64,000 nt of DNA from an uncultured Alphaproteobacteria bacterium (lineage in GTDB: Bacteria; Pseudomonadota; Alphaproteobacteria; HIMB59; GCA-002718135), in the NCBI GenBank assembly GCA_902515745.1, contig CABXWB010000005.1:21303-85302 (forward strand), written 5' to 3'. The notes beneath the pieces are model-generated. The model was not told the origin of the DNA. It worked only from the letters and a program-made list of their open reading frames with translations, and ran no database searches. The first letter of the stretch is position 1; the number at the start of each line of letters is the position of its first letter. A program made the translations under genes and the position numbers. Below, piece by piece: positions 28,523-62,353 of this stretch.

Positions 28523-28750
28523 TTAAACAAATAAATAGACGTACCCAAAAAGAAAAAGGGGTAATTGTAATCCAAAGTTTGTTAATAACGCTTTATCTCT
28601 TGTCATATAACCAACCACTGACCAACCAACTGCACCTGTTCCATGTATAATAATATTATATGGATATGCATTTAAGTTAGTTAATAATATTCCTGACAAG
28701 ATTAAAAAGGTACTAAACCACTTAATTCTATTAATTGATATATCTGTCAT
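28523..28750 (-). CDS. Small hypothetical membrane protein (75 aa, 2-3 predicted TM segments)
   Basis: It has hydrophobic segments FSTFLILSGILLTNL, GTGAVGWSVVGY and LPLFLFGYVYLFV. I recognise no family. Confidence 0.45.
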   Translation of the reverse strand: MTDISINRIKWFSTFLILSGILLTNLNAYPYNIIIHGTGAVGWSVVGYMTRDKALLTNFGLQLPLFLFGYVYLFV

Positions 28751-28833: not shown

Positions 28834-28872
28834 ATTTCTTTATTTTTTTTTGAAAAGTTCTATAAGCACGCC

Positions 28873-55277: not shown

Positions 55278-56324
55278 ATGTTAGCTGTTGAAGTTAAAAA
55301 TCTGACTCATGAGATTAATAATAAAAAAATCTTAAATAATATTGAGTTCAATCTAACCAAGGATAGCATTTCTTGTATTCTTGGTCCTTCAGGAAGTGGA
55401 AAAACAACATTATTAAAACTTATTGCAGGTTTAGAAAAAGTACAATCTGGTGAAATCTTAATAAATGGCGAAGAGGTGAGTAGTACAAAAAAACATTTGC
55501 CAACTGAAAAGAGAAAAATTGGATTTTTATTTCAAGACTATGCTTTGTTTCCACATTTAACAGTCAAGCAAAACTTAGAGTATCCCATAAATTATAAAAA
55601 TTCAAATTATAGAATTGAGGATATTATTGATTTAATAAAACTTCCAAACTCTCTAAATAAATTTCCCCATGAGTTAAGTGGTGGCGAACAACAAAGAGTA
55701 GCATTAGCAAGATCAATTATTTCTCAACCTGATTTACTTTTATTAGATGAGCCATTTTCGAGTCTTGATTTGAATTTAAGAGAAGAGGTCAGGGATGATA
55801 CTTTGCATTTATTACAAAAATCTAACATATCAGTGATTATTGTTACTCATGATCCATTTGAAGCTATGTTCATTTCTAATCAAATAAATATTATGGATAC
55901 CTCAGGATATATTATTCAATCTGGTAGCCCGGCAGAATTATATAAAAATCCTAAAAATTCGTATGTGACTGAATTTTTTGGCGAAACAAATAGGTTTCAT
56001 GGAAAAGTTAATAACTCTTTTGTAGATACGCCAGTAGGAAAAATTAAAGCTCCAAATGAACTTGAAAATACAAATGTAGAAATACATGTAAGACCACAAG
56101 GAGTAAAATTAAAACAACAACCAACACCTGTTAATGGAATAAAAGGTACTGTTATGGCCTCAAAATTAATGGGGTCTTTTAGTTTTGTGCATCTTTCAGT
56201 GCTTGATGACAATAATGAGGTTATTCATGTTCATAGTCACATGCCGCCAGAATTTAATCCTCAACAATCATCTGCTGTCGAAATTGAGATAGATCAATCT
56301 CAAGCTTTTATTTTTAAAAATTAG
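55278..56324 (+). CDS. fbpC: Fe(3+) ABC transporter ATP-binding protein
   Basis: 348 aa. It has Walker A GPSGSGKTT and the LSGGEQQRVALAR signature. It is convergent with fbpB. Confidence 0.8.
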   Translation: MLAVEVKNLTHEINNKKILNNIEFNLTKDSISCILGPSGSGKTTLLKLIAGLEKVQSGEILINGEEVSSTKKHLPTEKRKIGFLFQDYALFPHLTVKQNLEYPINYKNSNYRIEDIIDLIKLPNSLNKFPHELSGGEQQRVALARSIISQPDLLLLDEPFSSLDLNLREEVRDDTLHLLQKSNISVIIVTHDPFEAMFISNQINIMDTSGYIIQSGSPAELYKNPKNSYVTEFFGETNRFHGKVNNSFVDTPVGKIKAPNELENTNVEIHVRPQGVKLKQQPTPVNGIKGTVMASKLMGSFSFVHLSVLDDNNEVIHVHSHMPPEFNPQQSSAVEIEIDQSQAFIFKN

Positions 56325-57934
56325 TTGCTTTCTTTTTTTTGTGAAACTCTTTGAAGAGTTGTGTTTAAAAATATTACTGGACCAAGACCAACTACAATAA
56401 TTATTAGAGCAGCAAATGATGATTCTTGTAAAAGTTCATCGGATGCATATTGGTAGACATAAGTAGCTAAAGTTTCAAAATTAAAAGGTCTTAGCAGTAG
56501 AGTAATTGGAAGTTCTTTTAAAATATCAACAAAAACTAGGATGCCTCCTATTAAGATATTTGTATAAATTAAGGGTAATACGATTACTCTAATTGTATTT
56601 AGAAAACCTTTTCCCATTGTTTGGGAAGCATCAACTGCATTTGGATGAACTTTAAGTATTCCTGATCGCAGGGCAGCGTTACCAACTGCTAAAAATCTAG
56701 TTGTGTAAGCAAAAATTAATACTAAGAAACCACCTGCAGCATAACCCATTTCTATATTAGTTATTGAGTTTAACCATCCAAAAAATATAACAATGCCAAC
56801 TGCAAGTATAGTACCTGGTAGAGCATAACCACATGAAGCTACAAAAATTAATCCTTTTTGAAAAGTATTTGATTTATAATTTGATACAATAATTAGAATT
56901 ATAGAAACTAGCATGACAGTAGCAGCTCCTGCAAGTGCAAGCGATATACTTGTTGTTGCAGCAAATATAACTTCACTAAAATTAATTATAGAAAAACCAC
57001 TTAAAACGAAATTTAAAAGAATGAGCACAGGAATTACAAATCCAAGAGTAATTGGGGTCAAACAAATTAAAAAACAAAGTAACTTTCCAGAAAATGAAAT
57101 TGTTTCTGACTCAAGCATATTTTGACCACTACTTTTTTCAAAATATCTTTGTCTACGTCTTGCTAAATATTCAATAGTTAAAAGGACAACAACAAAAATA
57201 AATAAAACTGAAGATATTTGTGCTGCACCTGATAGACTGTTCATTCCCAACCAAACATTAAATACACCAAGGGTTAGAGTCTCTAGAGCAAAGTATTCAA
57301 CTGTTCCAAAATCAGAAATTGTTTCCATTAATACGAGTGCTAGGCCAGCAAATATTCCCGGTCTTGCAAGTGGCAGGGCAACAGAAAAAAAACTGCTTCG
57401 TCCATAAATTAAACTTGTTTGATAAAAAGATAAGGGCACGGTTAAAAAAGATGCTCTGGTCATCATGTAAATATATGGATAAAGAACACACGACATAACT
57501 AAAATAGCTCCGCCCATTGATCGTATTTCTGGGAACCAATAGTCGTCAACATTACTCCAGTTAAAAATTTCCCTTAGTAGTTTTTGTAATGGACCAGCGT
57601 ATTCTAAAAAATCAGTATATGTATAAGCAATGATATATGCAGGTACTGCAGCAGGTAATAATAGTGCCCACTCAAAAAAATTTTTACCTATAAAGTTATA
57701 TCTTGTAACTACCCATGCTGAAGAAACACCAAAGATCATACTTAGAATACCTACTCCGATCATGAGCACAATTGTGTTGTAAACATATCTTGGTAGAACG
57801 GTTGAGAATAAATGTGGCCATAGACTGGTGTCTCCTAAAAATGCGGAGTAAAAAATAGCAACTATTGGACAAATAATAAAAAGAGCAAGAAAAGTTGCTA
57901 ATGTAGATGAGCTATTCCAATTATACAAATTCAC
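56321..57934 (-). CDS. fbpB: Fe(3+) ABC transporter permease, fused two-domain type
   Basis: 537 aa. It is a duplicated permease architecture typical of FbpB/SfuB/HitB. Confidence 0.82.
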   Translation of the reverse strand: MNLYNWNSSSTLATFLALFIICPIVAIFYSAFLGDTSLWPHLFSTVLPRYVYNTIVLMIGVGILSMIFGVSSAWVVTRYNFIGKNFFEWALLLPAAVPAYIIAYTYTDFLEYAGPLQKLLREIFNWSNVDDYWFPEIRSMGGAILVMSCVLYPYIYMMTRASFLTVPLSFYQTSLIYGRSSFFSVALPLARPGIFAGLALVLMETISDFGTVEYFALETLTLGVFNVWLGMNSLSGAAQISSVLFIFVVVLLTIEYLARRRQRYFEKSSGQNMLESETISFSGKLLCFLICLTPITLGFVIPVLILLNFVLSGFSIINFSEVIFAATTSISLALAGAATVMLVSIILIIVSNYKSNTFQKGLIFVASCGYALPGTILAVGIVIFFGWLNSITNIEMGYAAGGFLVLIFAYTTRFLAVGNAALRSGILKVHPNAVDASQTMGKGFLNTIRVIVLPLIYTNILIGGILVFVDILKELPITLLLRPFNFETLATYVYQYASDELLQESSFAALIIIVVGLGPVIFLNTTLQRVSQKKESN

Positions 57935-57945
57935 TTGGTTATAAA

Positions 57946-58965
57946 CTACCAGCCAACCCGATCAATTATCATTTGGGCATTAGGAGCAAGTTCTGCTATT
58001 TTTATTATTGGAAGTGTATCCTCTCTAAAGCTACCCCAGCTTTGTAATTCTTCTCCAGGCTCAATTTTTAGATTTGCTGGGTACTCAAAATTTATTTCTC
58101 CGTAAAGTTTTTGTGCCTTTTCACTTGTTAAAAACTCAAGTAACTTCTGAGCTTCTTCTTTGTTACTAGAATACTTAGCTACACCTCCACCTGAAATATT
58201 TACATGAGCTCCTCTGTCACCCTCAGCTTGATTAGGAAAAACTAATCTCACACTTTCAGCCCATTTTCTTTGTTCAGGGTCTTCTGAGAATTTCAGTTTT
58301 CCATAATAATAATTATTTATAAGAGCAAGTTCACACTCCCCTTCATGAATAGCTTTAACCTGCGCTCTATCATTGCCTTGTGGTCTTTTGGCAAAATTAG
58401 CCACCATAGCCTTAGCCCATTTTTCAGCTTCATCTTCTCCAAGCGCTGCTAAAACTGATGCCATTATTCCACGGTTATAAACATGACTTCCAGGTCTTGA
58501 GCAAATTTTTCCCTTCCACTTGGGGTCCGCCAAATCTTCAATTCTAGTTATTTCACCTTCTGCAATCTTCTCTTTGTGAACTACAATAACTCTAGCTCTT
58601 TTGGAAAGACCAAACCATGTATTGTCAGGGCTCCTCAGGTAATTAGGAATATTATTTTGTAACTGTTTTGAATCTAATGGAGAGAGTAAATCAAGATCAT
58701 CATAAATATACAGTCTTCCTATATCTACTGTAAGAATAACATCCGCTGGACTATTTTCTCCCTCAGCCTTCAGTCTCTGGGCTAAGCCTTTTTTAGAATA
58801 AACAACATTTGTTTTAATGCCAGTTTCCTCAGTAAATAATTCTAGAAAAGGGTTAATTAAGAATGGCTGTCTATGTGAATAAATATTTATCTCTTTTGCA
58901 TTTAAATACGGAGTAAAAATAAATATAAAAAATAAAAATACAAAATGTAATAAATTAGTTTTCAT
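57946..58965 (-). CDS. fbpA: Fe(3+) ABC transporter periplasmic binding protein
   Basis: 339 aa. It has a signal peptide followed by KEINIYSHRQPFLINPFLELFTEETGIK, typical of FbpA/AfuA. Confidence 0.85.
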   Translation of the reverse strand: MKTNLLHFVFLFFIFIFTPYLNAKEINIYSHRQPFLINPFLELFTEETGIKTNVVYSKKGLAQRLKAEGENSPADVILTVDIGRLYIYDDLDLLSPLDSKQLQNNIPNYLRSPDNTWFGLSKRARVIVVHKEKIAEGEITRIEDLADPKWKGKICSRPGSHVYNRGIMASVLAALGEDEAEKWAKAMVANFAKRPQGNDRAQVKAIHEGECELALINNYYYGKLKFSEDPEQRKWAESVRLVFPNQAEGDRGAHVNISGGGVAKYSSNKEEAQKLLEFLTSEKAQKLYGEINFEYPANLKIEPGEELQSWGSFREDTLPIIKIAELAPNAQMIIDRVGW

Positions 58966-59965
58966 TTAAAGATCTCCTTTTTTGATTAATTGAGCTAAAT
59001 TTAAGTTTTATTTTTAAAAACTTTCTTAAAAAATAATTTTTAATTTCAATAAATGGATTTATGTATAAATCTTTTAAATTATGACTTTCATCTTTTTGGT
59101 TCTTTTCAATTCCAAGTTCTAGAGTTTCAAATTCAACTGAATGATGAAGTGATCTAAATACATAATCCCAAATAGCTAAAGCTGCTCCAAAGTTCTTATC
59201 ATGGTGTTCTCTTGCTATAGAGTGATGTAATTGATGTTGAGCTGGAGAAATGAATATATACTCTACCCATCTCCAATATCTAATTCCTACATGCGAGTGT
59301 CGTAAATTTGATCCTAGAATATTAAAAATAAATACAAAAATGTTTACTCCAAGAACTGTATATAAGCTTACTGAATCACCAAATAAAAAAATAAAAGAAG
59401 AAATACTTATTGCTTGTGTGATTGAACTTCTAAGAGAGAAAATTATTCCCTCTAAAGGATGAGTTCTAAAAACAGTCATTGGTGTTAAAACGGTAGCAGA
59501 ATGGTGCACCTTATGAAGTGACCATAAAATTGGCCATTTGTGCATAAACCTATGAACTATATATTTGCTAAAATCATCAATAGTAAATTGAAAAGTAGTG
59601 AAAGCAATTATCACAAGAATTGGAAGGGTTTCTTTAAACATTCCAACACTTAACCAATCAATGGTGTGAAAATAAAAGTAAAGTGCTGTGGCAATTGTTA
59701 ATTGAGTAATTAAAAATGGTGAAATAGTCATCATAATTAATTGATTAATAAGAAAAACTTTGTAGTCGGATTTTGCTGACTTAGAAAAAAATATTTTTTT
59801 ATCAAAAATTTTCTTAAATGCTGCAAAAAGAGAATATTTTCTTAATAAGATAAACCATAGAAATGCAATTAATATTGAGATACCAATGTAAGCTACAAAG
59901 ACTCTTTTTTTTGGATCAATAAATTGATTACCAATATTAGATATATATTCTGTTAAAATTTCCAT
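58955..59965 (-). CDS. Fatty acid hydroxylase / sterol desaturase-family membrane di-iron enzyme
   Basis: 336 aa. It has the histidine boxes HRFMH, HKVHH and HQLHH. It overlaps the fbpA start by 11 nt. Confidence 0.8.
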   Translation of the reverse strand: MEILTEYISNIGNQFIDPKKRVFVAYIGISILIAFLWFILLRKYSLFAAFKKIFDKKIFFSKSAKSDYKVFLINQLIMMTISPFLITQLTIATALYFYFHTIDWLSVGMFKETLPILVIIAFTTFQFTIDDFSKYIVHRFMHKWPILWSLHKVHHSATVLTPMTVFRTHPLEGIIFSLRSSITQAISISSFIFLFGDSVSLYTVLGVNIFVFIFNILGSNLRHSHVGIRYWRWVEYIFISPAQHQLHHSIAREHHDKNFGAALAIWDYVFRSLHHSVEFETLELGIEKNQKDESHNLKDLYINPFIEIKNYFLRKFLKIKLKFSSINQKRRSLNEN

Positions 59966-60013: not shown

Positions 60014-61393
60014 TTAATCGTTTTCAGCTGAGTCAGAACTTCCCATAGAGCTGGCAAGTTCTTCCATAGCAGCTAATTGATCATTATTTCTTGCAGTAAC
60101 CCCAAATTCATCAACCATCAGTTTTTGAATTTTAATCATGTGCATTTTAAATTCTCCCCAATCCTGAGCTTGATCTTTAATGAAGTTACCATTTGAATCA
60201 ACTCCAACAACTTGAGAAGCATTTAATAGAACTGGTCCAAAACCCATCATTCTATTCATCTTTTCTGCAGTTTCACCCAAATCTTCTGGTCCACATTGAA
60301 GAGCTAAAGCAAACCCTTTGAGTTCACCCCAGTGTTTAGCATACTTTCTAAATGCTTCTTCGGTATCACCATTGGCATCCATAATTGTTTCAAGTGCAAC
60401 AATATCTTTATAGGTAGAACCAGCATACTTGAACACAGACTCAGCAATAACTTTTTGCCAATTTTCTCTGATAGTATCTCTAGCTTCTAACATATCTGTT
60501 CTTTCAGAAAAGTTGAGGTTTCTTCCACCAGCGTCTCTAATAACTTTTCTACCATCAATAAATGCTTGGTTAATAGTAGCTAGATAATTAGTCTTACCAC
60601 CTTTGTCATAGCTTGATGCATAGTAAGCGTGTGCAAAAGTCATCTCAGAATATAGATCAACAACACCATCCCCGTTAAAGTCAGCAGCAGCTAAATCTTT
60701 CATCTTAGCAACATTATAATTTTGTTCTGCTGTTAATGTTAAAGAGTGGGCTGCAGCACCCCAGTATCCAAATGCTTCGTCCCAACTATGTTCTTTACCA
60801 GTATAATAAGCGCCTTCTTTATAAGGCTTACGGTTTTCTTTTTGACCAATTTCCATTTTACTTCCAAGATAACTATTTACGGCTTGGTTATAAAAAACTG
60901 CGCCCATAGCGAACTTAGATATTAATTGAGTGTAATCGAATCCTGTAGCAGGATCAAAATCACTACCAATTTCACTAGCTTTCTGCATCATGTGCTCAAG
61001 AGCTTCAGGTCCAGATAGTCCGCCCCAACCTGGAATAGCGCCTTTGTACATTTTGCCAGATAAGTTTCCACTACCAATCTCTGAAACCATAGTTTGCATT
61101 ACTGGGAAACCATCTTTTGATTTTGGAGCAATAATCTCTAAACCATCTTCCCCATTATAATATGCCATCATTTTATCGAGATCACCAGTTTTGACAAGTT
61201 TCTTCAGACTATCATGTAAGACTTGTCTAGCCATTTGACCTGTATATTTTACTGAGTTTGTTTTATCGCCATCATAACCTTTTAATGTAATAGGGTAAGG
61301 TCCATAAACTTCTGGACCATGACCATCGGCAAAAGATTTAGAAAAGCTGAAAGAAAAAACTAAAGCAGTAGCTATGAGTAATATTTTTTTCAT
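60014..61393 (-). CDS. Secreted 459-aa protein of unknown function (possibly DUF4856/imelysin-like, iron-locus associated)
   Basis: It has a signal peptide (MKKILLIATALVFSFSFSKSFA) and a central EHSWDEAFGYWGAAAH motif. An SD sequence AAGGAAA is present. The family assignment is from memory only. Confidence 0.5.
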   Translation of the reverse strand: MKKILLIATALVFSFSFSKSFADGHGPEVYGPYPITLKGYDGDKTNSVKYTGQMARQVLHDSLKKLVKTGDLDKMMAYYNGEDGLEIIAPKSKDGFPVMQTMVSEIGSGNLSGKMYKGAIPGWGGLSGPEALEHMMQKASEIGSDFDPATGFDYTQLISKFAMGAVFYNQAVNSYLGSKMEIGQKENRKPYKEGAYYTGKEHSWDEAFGYWGAAAHSLTLTAEQNYNVAKMKDLAAADFNGDGVVDLYSEMTFAHAYYASSYDKGGKTNYLATINQAFIDGRKVIRDAGGRNLNFSERTDMLEARDTIRENWQKVIAESVFKYAGSTYKDIVALETIMDANGDTEEAFRKYAKHWGELKGFALALQCGPEDLGETAEKMNRMMGFGPVLLNASQVVGVDSNGNFIKDQAQDWGEFKMHMIKIQKLMVDEFGVTARNNDQLAAMEELASSMGSSDSAEND

Positions 61394-61436
61394 ATATATT
61401 TTCCTTAATTGTAAATTTTTTCTTAGTTTAAAAGGT

Positions 61437-61505
61437 GTGGAGATGAGTTGAAACTCGTTTGGTTAAGATGCGCCTTTACCTTTAAAAAAGATTTCTCATC
61501 TCCAC
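61437..61505 (-). promoter_or_regulatory. Structured 5' leader element: 11-bp inverted repeat GTGGAGATGAG...CTCATCTCCAC enclosing about 47 nt
   Basis: It lies 44-112 nt upstream of the 459-aa gene start. A competing inner hairpin, GAGTT-GA-AACTC, shares the GAG of the outer stem. Confidence 0.4.
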
Positions 61506-61601
61506 GTCCTATTACTAAGGATCTGAGGTTCTTTTATAATAATTAAAAAAAAAATTTTTTTTATTTTATTTTACCCGCTTTTAAAGGCTATTTTTAATGT
61601 T

Positions 61602-61618
61602 TTTAGAGTTATTCTAAT
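61602..61618. promoter_or_regulatory. Irr-box / iron control element-like site TTTAGAG-TTA-TTCTAAT
   Basis: It matches the ICE consensus TTTAGAA-N3-TTCTAAA at 12 of 14 specified positions. Confidence 0.45.
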
Positions 61619-61636
61619 TTAAAGATTTTTTAAATA

Positions 61637-61693
61637 GGTGGTTAGTAATCGTAATATTAAATGTGAGTTATAATGTTATAAAAACTAACCACC
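61637..61693. other. Long-range hairpin GGTGGTTAGT...ACTAACCACC (10-bp stem, 37-nt AT-rich loop)
   Basis: A perfect inverted repeat was read directly, and it lies between the two ICE-like boxes. Confidence 0.35.
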
Positions 61694-61783
61694 ATGGAAC
61701 GGAAGTAGATTTTTTAATATGTTAATATTAATATTTGTGTAAAAAAAAATTAATTTGATATCATAAAATAGATATTTGAGAGT

Positions 61784-61800
61784 TTTAGAACTATTCTAAT
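61784..61800. promoter_or_regulatory. Irr-box / iron control element-like site TTTAGAA-CTA-TTCTAAT
   Basis: It matches the ICE consensus at 13 of 14 specified positions. It is part of a roughly 25-nt direct repeat shared with 61601-61625. Confidence 0.5.
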
Positions 61801-61827
61801 TAAAAGTAATAGACGTTCATTATAGGC

Positions 61828-61845
61828 GGGGCCTCAAAGGGCCCC
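61828..61845 (-). terminator. GC-rich hairpin GGGGCC-N6-GGCCCC after hsp20
   Basis: It lies 10 nt downstream of the hsp20 stop. It has no clear U-tract, but it is a conspicuous GC clamp in AT-rich DNA. Confidence 0.4.
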
Positions 61846-61854
61846 TATCCAAGA

Positions 61855-62292
61855 CTATTTTATAGAAATAAGTCTAGCTTTCTTTTCTTCTGGTATAATT
61901 CTCTCAAGATCAATTGTTAAAAGTCCATTAATTAATTCAGCATCCTTAACTTTGATGTCTTCTGAAATAGTGAACGATCTTTCAAACTGTCTCGTTGAGA
62001 TTCCTTTATGAATTACTCCATTACCATTATCATTAACCACTTTTTCTTTTGGTTTATTTCTAACAGTAAGATTATTTTCTTTTAATTCAATCTCAATGTC
62101 TTCTTTACTATATCCAGCAAGAGCAACTTCAATTTTATAATTGTGATCATCAACTCTATGAATATTGTAAGGTGGATAGTTTGTATTATAACGTTCAGTG
62201 GATTCTAACATTCTATCAAATTCATCGAAAATCGAATCAAATCCAACAGAAAATGGTCTTAGAGAATTCCAAACGGATAGGTTTCTAGTCAT
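61855..62292 (-). CDS. Small heat-shock protein, Hsp20/IbpA family
   Basis: It has an alpha-crystallin domain (PPYNIHRVDDHNYKIEVALAGYSKEDIEIE...GLLTIDL). I moved the start to MTRNLSVW (Met17 of the track ORF), which is preceded by the SD AAAGGAG. Confidence 0.9.
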   Translation of the reverse strand: MTRNLSVWNSLRPFSVGFDSIFDEFDRMLESTERYNTNYPPYNIHRVDDHNYKIEVALAGYSKEDIEIELKENNLTVRNKPKEKVVNDNGNGVIHKGISTRQFERSFTISEDIKVKDAELINGLLTIDLERIIPEEKKARLISIK

Positions 62293-62317
62293 AATAACTC
62301 CTTTATAAGCAAGTATT
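62293..62317 (-). promoter_or_regulatory. ROSE-like RNA thermometer hairpin masking the hsp20 Shine-Dalgarno
   Basis: In the minus-strand RNA AAUACUUGCU-UAUAA-AGGAGUUAUU, the conserved UUGCU pairs with AGGAG including a G.G opposition. The stem ends at the AUG. Confidence 0.5.
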
Positions 62318-62353
62318 AATGTCGGCACCCACAATGGCATACTGACATTTATG

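Follow-up and report, generated by a model that had tools for sequence, protein, structure and literature searches.

Two conserved Irr-type boxes upstream of a likely iron-uptake operon in a SAR11-type genome

The window analyzed here is a 64-kb stretch of alphaproteobacterial DNA. The genome has a GC content of about 30%, and its genes are tightly packed. Between ORFs of at least 60 aa, the longest spacer in the window is the 461-bp region from 61394 to 61854, which has a GC content of about 20 to 27%; the next longest measures 207 bp. An earlier note on this DNA had singled out this spacer as the longest and had named the genes downstream of it on the minus strand, and we found both statements to be correct. 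The first gene encodes a secreted DUF4856 protein of 459 aa. The protein has more than 2000 homologues, and our search for its function turned up no solved structural relative and no paper. It is followed by genes for a fatty-acid-hydroxylase-family protein (FA_hydroxylase), a solute-binding protein, and a two-domain permease (Table 1). The gene for the matching ATPase is on the opposite strand (55278-56324). The binding protein of one relative is annotated as "Iron uptake protein A1." The best NCBIfam matches of the transporter are putative 2-aminoethylphosphonate transporter models, all well below cut-off, and these models do not fix the substrate. The function of the operon is likely iron uptake, with the iron specificity taken from annotation. 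Upstream of the spacer, the minus strand carries genes for thymidine phosphorylase, an O-methyltransferase, and a small heat-shock protein (hsp20/ibpA-like, 61855-62340).

Table 1. Positions of the genes and control features in and around the spacer
Feature	Position	Strand	Remarks
Rest of operon	56321..59965	-	Three genes; family/annotation matches
Two-domain ABC permease	56321-57934	-	
FutA1/FbpA-like solute-binding protein	57946-58965	-	
FA_hydroxylase protein	58955-59965	-	
First operon gene, DUF4856 protein	60014..61393	-	Pfam PF16148, E = 1.2e-10
Leader L1 of DUF4856 operon	61394..61524	-	Short 5' hairpin and long stem 61437-61447 / 61495-61505
Box 1-to-leader interval, holding putative P1	61525..61601	-	77 nt; -10 TATAAA 61538-61533; A/T tract 61545-61562
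Proximal ICE/Irr-type box (box 1)	61602..61618	-	ATTAGAATAACTCTAAA in gene orientation; 15/17 match to TTTRGAAYNRTTCYAAA
Orphan leader L2	61619..61708	-	About 90 nt; inverted repeat; hairpin GGTGGTTAGT...ACTAACCACC
Putative promoter P2, orphan module	61714..61743	-	-35 TTTACA 61743-61738; -10 CATATT/TATTAA 61721-61714; consensus scan
Distal ICE/Irr-type box (box 2)	61784..61800	-	ATTAGAATAGTTCTAAA in gene orientation; 16/17 match to TTTRGAAYNRTTCYAAA
GC-rich hairpin GGGGCC/GGCCCC	61826..61847	-	Just past hsp20 stop codon; read from sequence

The spacer contains two palindromes that resemble the iron control element (ICE), the target of the regulator Irr. The ICE consensus was published as TTTAGAA-N3-TTCTAAA and was refined to TTTRGAAYNRTTCYAAA. 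On the plus strand, the proximal palindrome reads TTTAGAGTTATTCTAAT and has two mismatches to TTTAGAA-N3-TTCTAAA, one of which falls on a conserved half-site position; the distal palindrome reads TTTAGAACTATTCTAAT and has one mismatch. Both also fit the central Y-N-R positions of the refined form, and the boxes of relatives match the Irr-box consensus at 16 to 17 of the 17 positions. The two sites lie exactly where the earlier note had placed them. The direct repeat that it had described around them, with copies starting 182 bp apart, is present as well, as 35 nt at 77% identity. With up to two mismatches to TTTAGAA-N3-TTCTAAA allowed, the 64-kb window holds 9 matches versus 3.09 expected from 100 shuffles, and not one of the 100 shuffles reached 9. 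Outside long ORFs, the only matches are the two boxes and one site at 28848. The latter (TTTTGAAAAGTTCTATA, 28848-28864, two mismatches) is 9 nt before a PhoU_div/DUF47 gene and is probably a chance match; a 75-aa membrane-like ORF is found near it, at 28523-28750 on the minus strand.

We compared 80 loci encoding DUF4856 homologues, 925 kb in total, and read their upstream regions. The closest public relatives are single-cell genomes labeled uncultured Alphaproteobacteria or Pelagibacteraceae, together with "MarineAlpha5" bins. In gene orientation, the box ATTAGAATA[A/G]TTCTAAA is present in every genome whose DUF4856 protein is at least 79% identical, except L025 and L035, which carry the variant half-site TTACAAT. 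The exact core TTAGAA-N3-TTCTAA occurs at 30 of the 80 loci, always just upstream of a transcription unit and nowhere else in the 925 kb of related loci. The box is absent from the loci of SAR116, Rhodobacteraceae, and Pelagibacteraceae proper, where DUF4856 identity is 66% or lower. The earlier note had named a lack of conservation in orthologous spacers as grounds to reject the sites, and the comparison gave no such grounds. Mean column identity is 0.96 to 1.0 in the boxes versus 0.72 to 0.74 in the first 55 nt after the box; it is 0.76 to 0.83 in the -10 region and 0.91 to 0.96 in the leader. Judged by match and conservation together, the boxes are genuine conserved sites of the ICE/Irr-box type, not chance AT-rich palindromes.

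The distance from the proximal box to the leader is nearly constant. Between the box end and the leader start (AGATCC... or its equivalents), 18 loci have 77 nt, 9 have 78 nt, and one locus each has 76 and 79 nt; the divergent metagenome contig L219 also has 79 nt. These counts cover the approximately 28 to 29 loci that have the leader, plus L219, and the sequence of the interval diverges among them. In four relatives without the leader (L022, L024, L030, and L035), the 77-nt rule would leave 5' untranslated regions of 23 to 57 nt. The distal module repeats the arrangement, with 75 to 76 nt between the distal box and the conserved start of L2 (CTACTTCCG). The -35 of P2, TT[TAC]ACA, is kept in most group A relatives, with L014 as the exception, and a -10-like hexamer 5 to 7 nt before the leader start is likewise kept in most of them. 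On reading the interval that holds P1, we recognized no -35; its TATAAA ends 8 nt before the leader start.

We placed the likely transcription starts at about 61524 and 61708, using the conserved leader starts and the -10-like hexamers. The center of box 1 would then be about 85 bp upstream of its start, and that of box 2 about 83 bp; the range for both boxes together is about 83 to 86 bp. The distance has been kept within 1 to 3 nt while the sequence drifted. Therefore, a protein bound at the box would have to face the polymerase, as in upstream activation. The position of the boxes thus argues for an upstream activator, not for a repressor site that overlaps the promoter, and the want of a recognizable -35 at P1 points the same way. 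These findings partly support what the earlier note had read from the single sequence. It had proposed a promoter near 61531-61544, and the -10-like TATAAA and the A/T tract are present; it had put box 1 some 60 to 85 nt upstream, and the box is centered about 85 nt upstream of the conserved leader start. Its third proposal, a position that suggests positive control, agrees with boxes that are upstream of the probable promoter and not over it.

Both leaders are predicted to be strongly structured. L1 folds with -30.5 kcal/mol (z = -4.09 versus shuffled controls). In each of the 10 distinct variants, the basal 8 bp of its long stem form, and at 6 of these 8 positions at least two Watson-Crick pair types occur, that is, compensatory changes. 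These pairs were counted by script; the MAFFT alignment had left the 3' stem strands of two groups out of register. One strand of the 5' hairpin of L1, UCCUUAG, would be complementary to the ribosome-binding site UUAAGGA. L2 folds with -17.6 kcal/mol (z = -4.45) and is nearly invariant in eight genomes, six of which lack an ORF behind it. In relatives, L2 is the 5' leader of a MarR-like gene, and in the window no ORF follows it. A search of the whole window against Rfam gave nothing at the gathering score, and a riboswitch or another known RNA was accordingly rejected for L1 and L2; the best hit of a permissive search of the spacer was RAGATH-32 (15 bits, E = 2). A leader peptide in L2 (ATG at 61695, 12 codons) was rejected too: it has no ribosome-binding site, and a 1-nt indel breaks the frame in L014. 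In earlier work on P. ubique, the spacer upstream of the iron-binding-protein gene was merely listed among unusually GC-rich spacers.

The relatives suggest why the spacer is so long. In ten of them (L007, L015, L016, L018-L021, L023, L026, and L032), the boxes are about 540 bp apart, with an ORF of about 120 aa between them, and the more divergent metagenome contig L219 has the same box-ORF-box layout. All eleven copies of this MarR-like gene that we examined are between two ICE boxes and upstream of DUF4856; examples are L007 5409-5768, L019 5440-5808, and L219 381-743. In an alignment of the window with L007 and L015, the distal box and about 160 nt after it are common to both sides, about 360 bp corresponding almost exactly to the MarR-like ORF are missing from the window, and the sequences rejoin at the proximal box. 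The junction is inside 61619-61636. Since the MarR-like gene occupies the same place in both main groups, a deletion in the clade of the window is the simplest history. The spacer would then be 461 bp long because the gene between the boxes was deleted and the distal box, promoter, and leader were left behind.

The distal box is identical in all relatives without the MarR-like ORF, except for one central change in L012. The proximal box has C or A at position 11 in every ORF-less genome and the consensus T where the MarR-like gene is kept (ATTAGAATAATTCTAAA). This change may reflect relaxed selection. Alternatively, a weaker proximal site might let transcripts from P2 through, as box 1 would be about 90 nt downstream of P2 after the deletion.

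The lost protein belongs to an orphan family of 68 clusters that is restricted to this locus. It has no match in Pfam or NCBIfam, MarR models included, apart from a weak HTH_36 hit below cut-off (E = 0.005). Its AlphaFold model (pLDDT, 85.7) is predicted to be a MarR-type winged helix, and nearly all of its best PDB matches are members of the MarR family, the top one being the heme sensor PefR (PDB 7dvs; E = 6e-4). The lost protein is thus like PefR in its predicted fold, but unlike PefR-type MarR regulators it has only 120 aa and no Pfam MarR match. It evolves fast: groups that share 86% identity in DUF4856 share 35% in this protein. Some relatives carry a further gene pair, encoding a 233-aa secreted or membrane protein of no known family and a HupE/UreJ transporter (L019 3972-5272, L029 4506-5806, and L017 4494-5809). 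This pair sits between hsp20 and either DUF4856 or the MarR-like gene, with an ICE-like box of its own in front of it. Therefore, a box marks the start of each transcription unit in a small variable island. We also considered the direct repeats as the ends of a mobile element. This was rejected, given the ordinary genes between the boxes in relatives and the fixed distance from box to transcription unit; no tRNA or tmRNA was found as an integration site.

We then scanned public metagenomes for ATTAGAAYNRTTCTAAA, which gave at least 121 sites at no fewer than 120 loci. The DUF4856 locus is not among the 120 listed loci, which makes this an independent line of evidence. Among the matches listed, 99 of the 121 sites are not inside a long ORF, and a Fur-family gene is within about 1 kb at 20 of the 120 loci, mostly at less than 150 nt (at L134 the distance is 1.7 kb). 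Of these 20 listed neighbors, 14 match Irr of Bradyrhizobium japonicum better than Fur of Escherichia coli. The motif-adjacent regulators that we tested score best against the NCBIfam Irr/IrrA models, with 115 to 136 bits, below the strict cut-offs. The usual order is irr, box, and then a gene for rubrerythrin, KatG, or a peroxiredoxin, and it includes contigs of 26 to 33% GC. In the marine contig L165, an Irr-like gene is followed after 14 nt by a box that is identical to the distal box at all 17 positions and precedes katG. However, many AT-rich matches precede genes without a visible iron link, as judged by reading the sequences, so the motif alone is no proof of Irr control. Beyond rubrerythrin, KatG, and AhpC, the downstream proteins look miscellaneous, and some are possibly of phage origin.

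The contigs with irr, box, and peroxide-defense genes include L201 (3001-3946), L211-L215, L092, L127, L107, L185, and L165. In L201 and L202, the rubrerythrin, katG, or peroxiredoxin gene is followed by genes for a CCG-domain protein, AhpC, and DUF3501; the CCG-domain protein and DUF3501 are also found in L212. Two boxes, 64 nt apart, are present in L107.

In Pelagibacteraceae proper, a gene for a divergent Irr-like protein (NCBIfam IrrA, 83 bits) is directly upstream of the DUF4856 homologue, which links the Irr family to this operon by position. The 119-nt spacer at these loci has no canonical ICE. The Irr-like gene (L070 5456-5875; also L065, L071, L072, and L075-L080) adjoins a histidine-rich znuA. 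P. ubique encodes Irr, and iron limitation raises the levels of both its ICE-associated rubrerythrin and its sfu iron transporter. A published prediction for P. ubique assigns only rubrerythrin to Irr and gives control of the iron transporter to Fur (Rodionov et al. 2006, PMC1698941), and the order of irr, box, and rubrerythrin in the metagenomes agrees with it.

Neither the 64-kb window nor any of the 13-kb loci of its clade contains a Fur-family gene. A homologue search from the SAR11 Irr-like protein returned close relatives only. The AT-rich contigs that carry irr belong to other lineages, with a PNPase 60% identical to that of the window; in them irr follows pnp-NMO, which it does not in the window. 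The box is present where no MarR-like gene adjoins it, both in the window clade and in L017, L022, L024, L029, and L030. Therefore, the factor that binds it is presumably encoded elsewhere in the genome.

We suggest that the spacer represents two copies of one module, each made of a 17-bp operator, about 76 to 77 bp containing a promoter, and a structured RNA leader. The proximal module (box 1, P1, and L1) would drive the genes for the DUF4856 protein, the hydroxylase, the iron-type binding protein, and the permease, and the distal module (box 2, P2, and L2) would once have driven the MarR-like gene. The ICE reading is the best-supported one for the boxes, and the protein that binds them would most likely be an Irr-type regulator of the Fur family. 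Irr is active when iron or heme is scarce. Its binding at both boxes would activate the promoters under iron limitation, and such activation is likely because the box centers keep a strict distance of some 83 to 86 bp from the likely starts, on the upstream side. Taken as a whole, control by an Irr-type activator encoded elsewhere seems to us probable, though well short of assured.

The ICE of Bradyrhizobium japonicum was reportedly described by Rudolph and colleagues in 2006. The boxes of the window resemble the ICE/Irr box of that species and of other alphaproteobacteria, being 17-bp palindromes that fit TTTRGAAYNRTTCYAAA (Rodionov et al. 2006, PMC1698941). They would also be alike in place, since the B. 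japonicum ICE is found in promoter regions of iron-related genes; here the iron link of the operon comes from annotation. Depending on where it stands with respect to the promoter, the ICE is described as having a positive or a negative effect (Rodionov et al. 2006, PMC1698941). At promoters that Irr represses, namely, Rhodobacter sphaeroides mbfA and B. japonicum bfr and blr7895, the ICE overlaps the transcription start (PMC3413700). The motif and the predicted regulator family are the same there, whereas in the window some 85 bp separate the box center from the likely start downstream of it. The role of Irr in Rhodobacter is modest and not simply activating. The predicted irr-ICE-rubrerythrin locus of P. 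ubique (Rodionov 2006) shares the 17-mer motif and the setting in AT-rich marine alphaproteobacterial DNA. In loci of that kind, however, the box adjoins irr and is 41 to 119 nt from the start codon of the peroxide-defense gene, whereas the box of the window has no irr close by and would control a transport operon. The box in front of this operon thus departs from the published P. ubique reconstruction. The locus also differs from published ICE cases in that the predicted box precedes an iron-uptake operon in a streamlined, SAR11-type genome, in that about 77 nt, a strictly kept length, separate it from the leader start, and in that one half-site ends in A rather than T in the window.

An alternative is that another binder of the Fur family, not a classical Irr, occupies the boxes. 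It could be Fur, a PerR-like peroxide sensor, or the divergent Irr-like paralogue that adjoins DUF4856 in Pelagibacteraceae, and the signal or the sign of control could then differ, for example, as a peroxide response or as repression by looping between the boxes. The box can be written as a 7-1-7 repeat (TTAGAAT-n-ATTCTAA), which is a general Fur-family type. From the PerR box of Bacillus, TTATAATnATTATAA, it differs at only one symmetric position. The peroxide-defense genes next to the motif in marine contigs (rubrerythrin, katG, and AhpC) would suit a peroxide sensor, and PerR is the second-best family match of the motif-adjacent regulators. At least two Irr-like lineages, only about 30% identical, occur in SAR11-like DNA, and the iron transporter of P. 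ubique was itself placed under Fur. However, these regulators score best against the Irr/IrrA models, and a box held about 85 bp from the promoter is an atypical geometry for a repressor. For Fur proper, the boxes mismatch the 7-1-7 consensus TGATAATnATTATCA at 4 of 14 positions. The only Fur-like match in the spacer (61534-61548) has three mismatches, and about 20 such matches are expected by chance across the window; a Fur box was therefore rejected. On balance, we consider a Fur-family binder of this kind an unlikely but serious alternative to an Irr-type regulator.

A different alternative takes the boxes as the operator of the MarR-like protein, an autoregulator that would also control the operon; in the window, they would be relics, or the operon would be permanently de-repressed. 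Such an operator would explain why the MarR-like gene is always bracketed by two boxes, in the ten genome loci and in L219. It would also fit the predicted winged-helix fold with its similarity to PefR and a proximal box that is imperfect exactly in the genomes that lost the gene. Against it, at least five arrangements without an adjacent MarR-like gene retain intact boxes at the fixed distance, and in the ORF-less clade the distal box shows full conservation next to a diverging spacer. Moreover, the motif is that of the Irr box and adjoins irr genes in unrelated contigs without a MarR-like gene, and a third box precedes the HupE pair. We therefore regard a MarR operator as quite improbable. 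Least of all do we credit chance palindromes, or a neutral local duplication without function, as the origin of the boxes: the AT-rich context and the abundance of short AT-rich palindromes, with many metagenome matches that look unrelated to iron, would allow for it, but this reading is already contradicted by boxes that stay near-perfect down to 79% protein identity while their flanks diverge, and also by the excess over all shuffles, the fixed box-leader distance, and the placement of most listed metagenome sites outside long ORFs.

The distal module may still serve a purpose. L2 is almost invariant in genomes without an ORF behind it, which suggests an independent function. L2 may act as a small RNA, or it may belong to the transcript of the second promoter. 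In an extended form of this idea, selection would have kept box 2, P2, and L2 after the deletion, and the module would now yield a small RNA that responds to iron or provide the uptake operon with a second iron-controlled promoter farther upstream. In more general terms, a box, 77 bp, and a leader could form a portable cassette through which one regulator controls accessory genes (the MarR-like gene, the HupE pair, and the DUF4856 operon) in a regulator-poor genome. This extended proposal strikes us as rather unlikely.

SAR11-type bacteria are dominant in the surface ocean; their habitat is poor in iron, and their genomes encode very few regulators. If the predicted boxes act as read, the Irr regulon would extend to iron uptake in an abundant SAR11 subclade, and iron regulation would differ between SAR11 lineages. 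A box with fixed spacing could also serve as a simple sequence-based marker of genes under iron control in marine metagenomes. Candidate parts of the response to iron limitation would be the DUF4856 protein, the hydroxylase, the HupE pair, and the MarR-like protein. The locus may also be seen as streamlining in progress, where a regulator gene was cleanly removed and its control region and leader RNA survive. What is new here is the gene loss behind the length of the spacer, the box-77 bp-leader modules, the link between the motif and irr in marine DNA, and the orphan leader; the subject is of moderate interest for work on SAR11 and marine iron limitation.

Two smaller features were noted on the hsp20 side of the spacer. 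The GC-rich hairpin looks like a terminator for the upstream gene. It is kept in L009 and has equivalents in L023, L032, and L029; a consensus scan made no terminator call there, and the hairpin is not followed by a T-run. In the 5' untranslated region of the hsp20/ibpA-like gene, a ROSE_3-like match was found at 62287-62346 on the minus strand (25.5 bits, E = 0.012, below the gathering score of 43). It is plausibly an RNA thermometer, as in other alphaproteobacteria.
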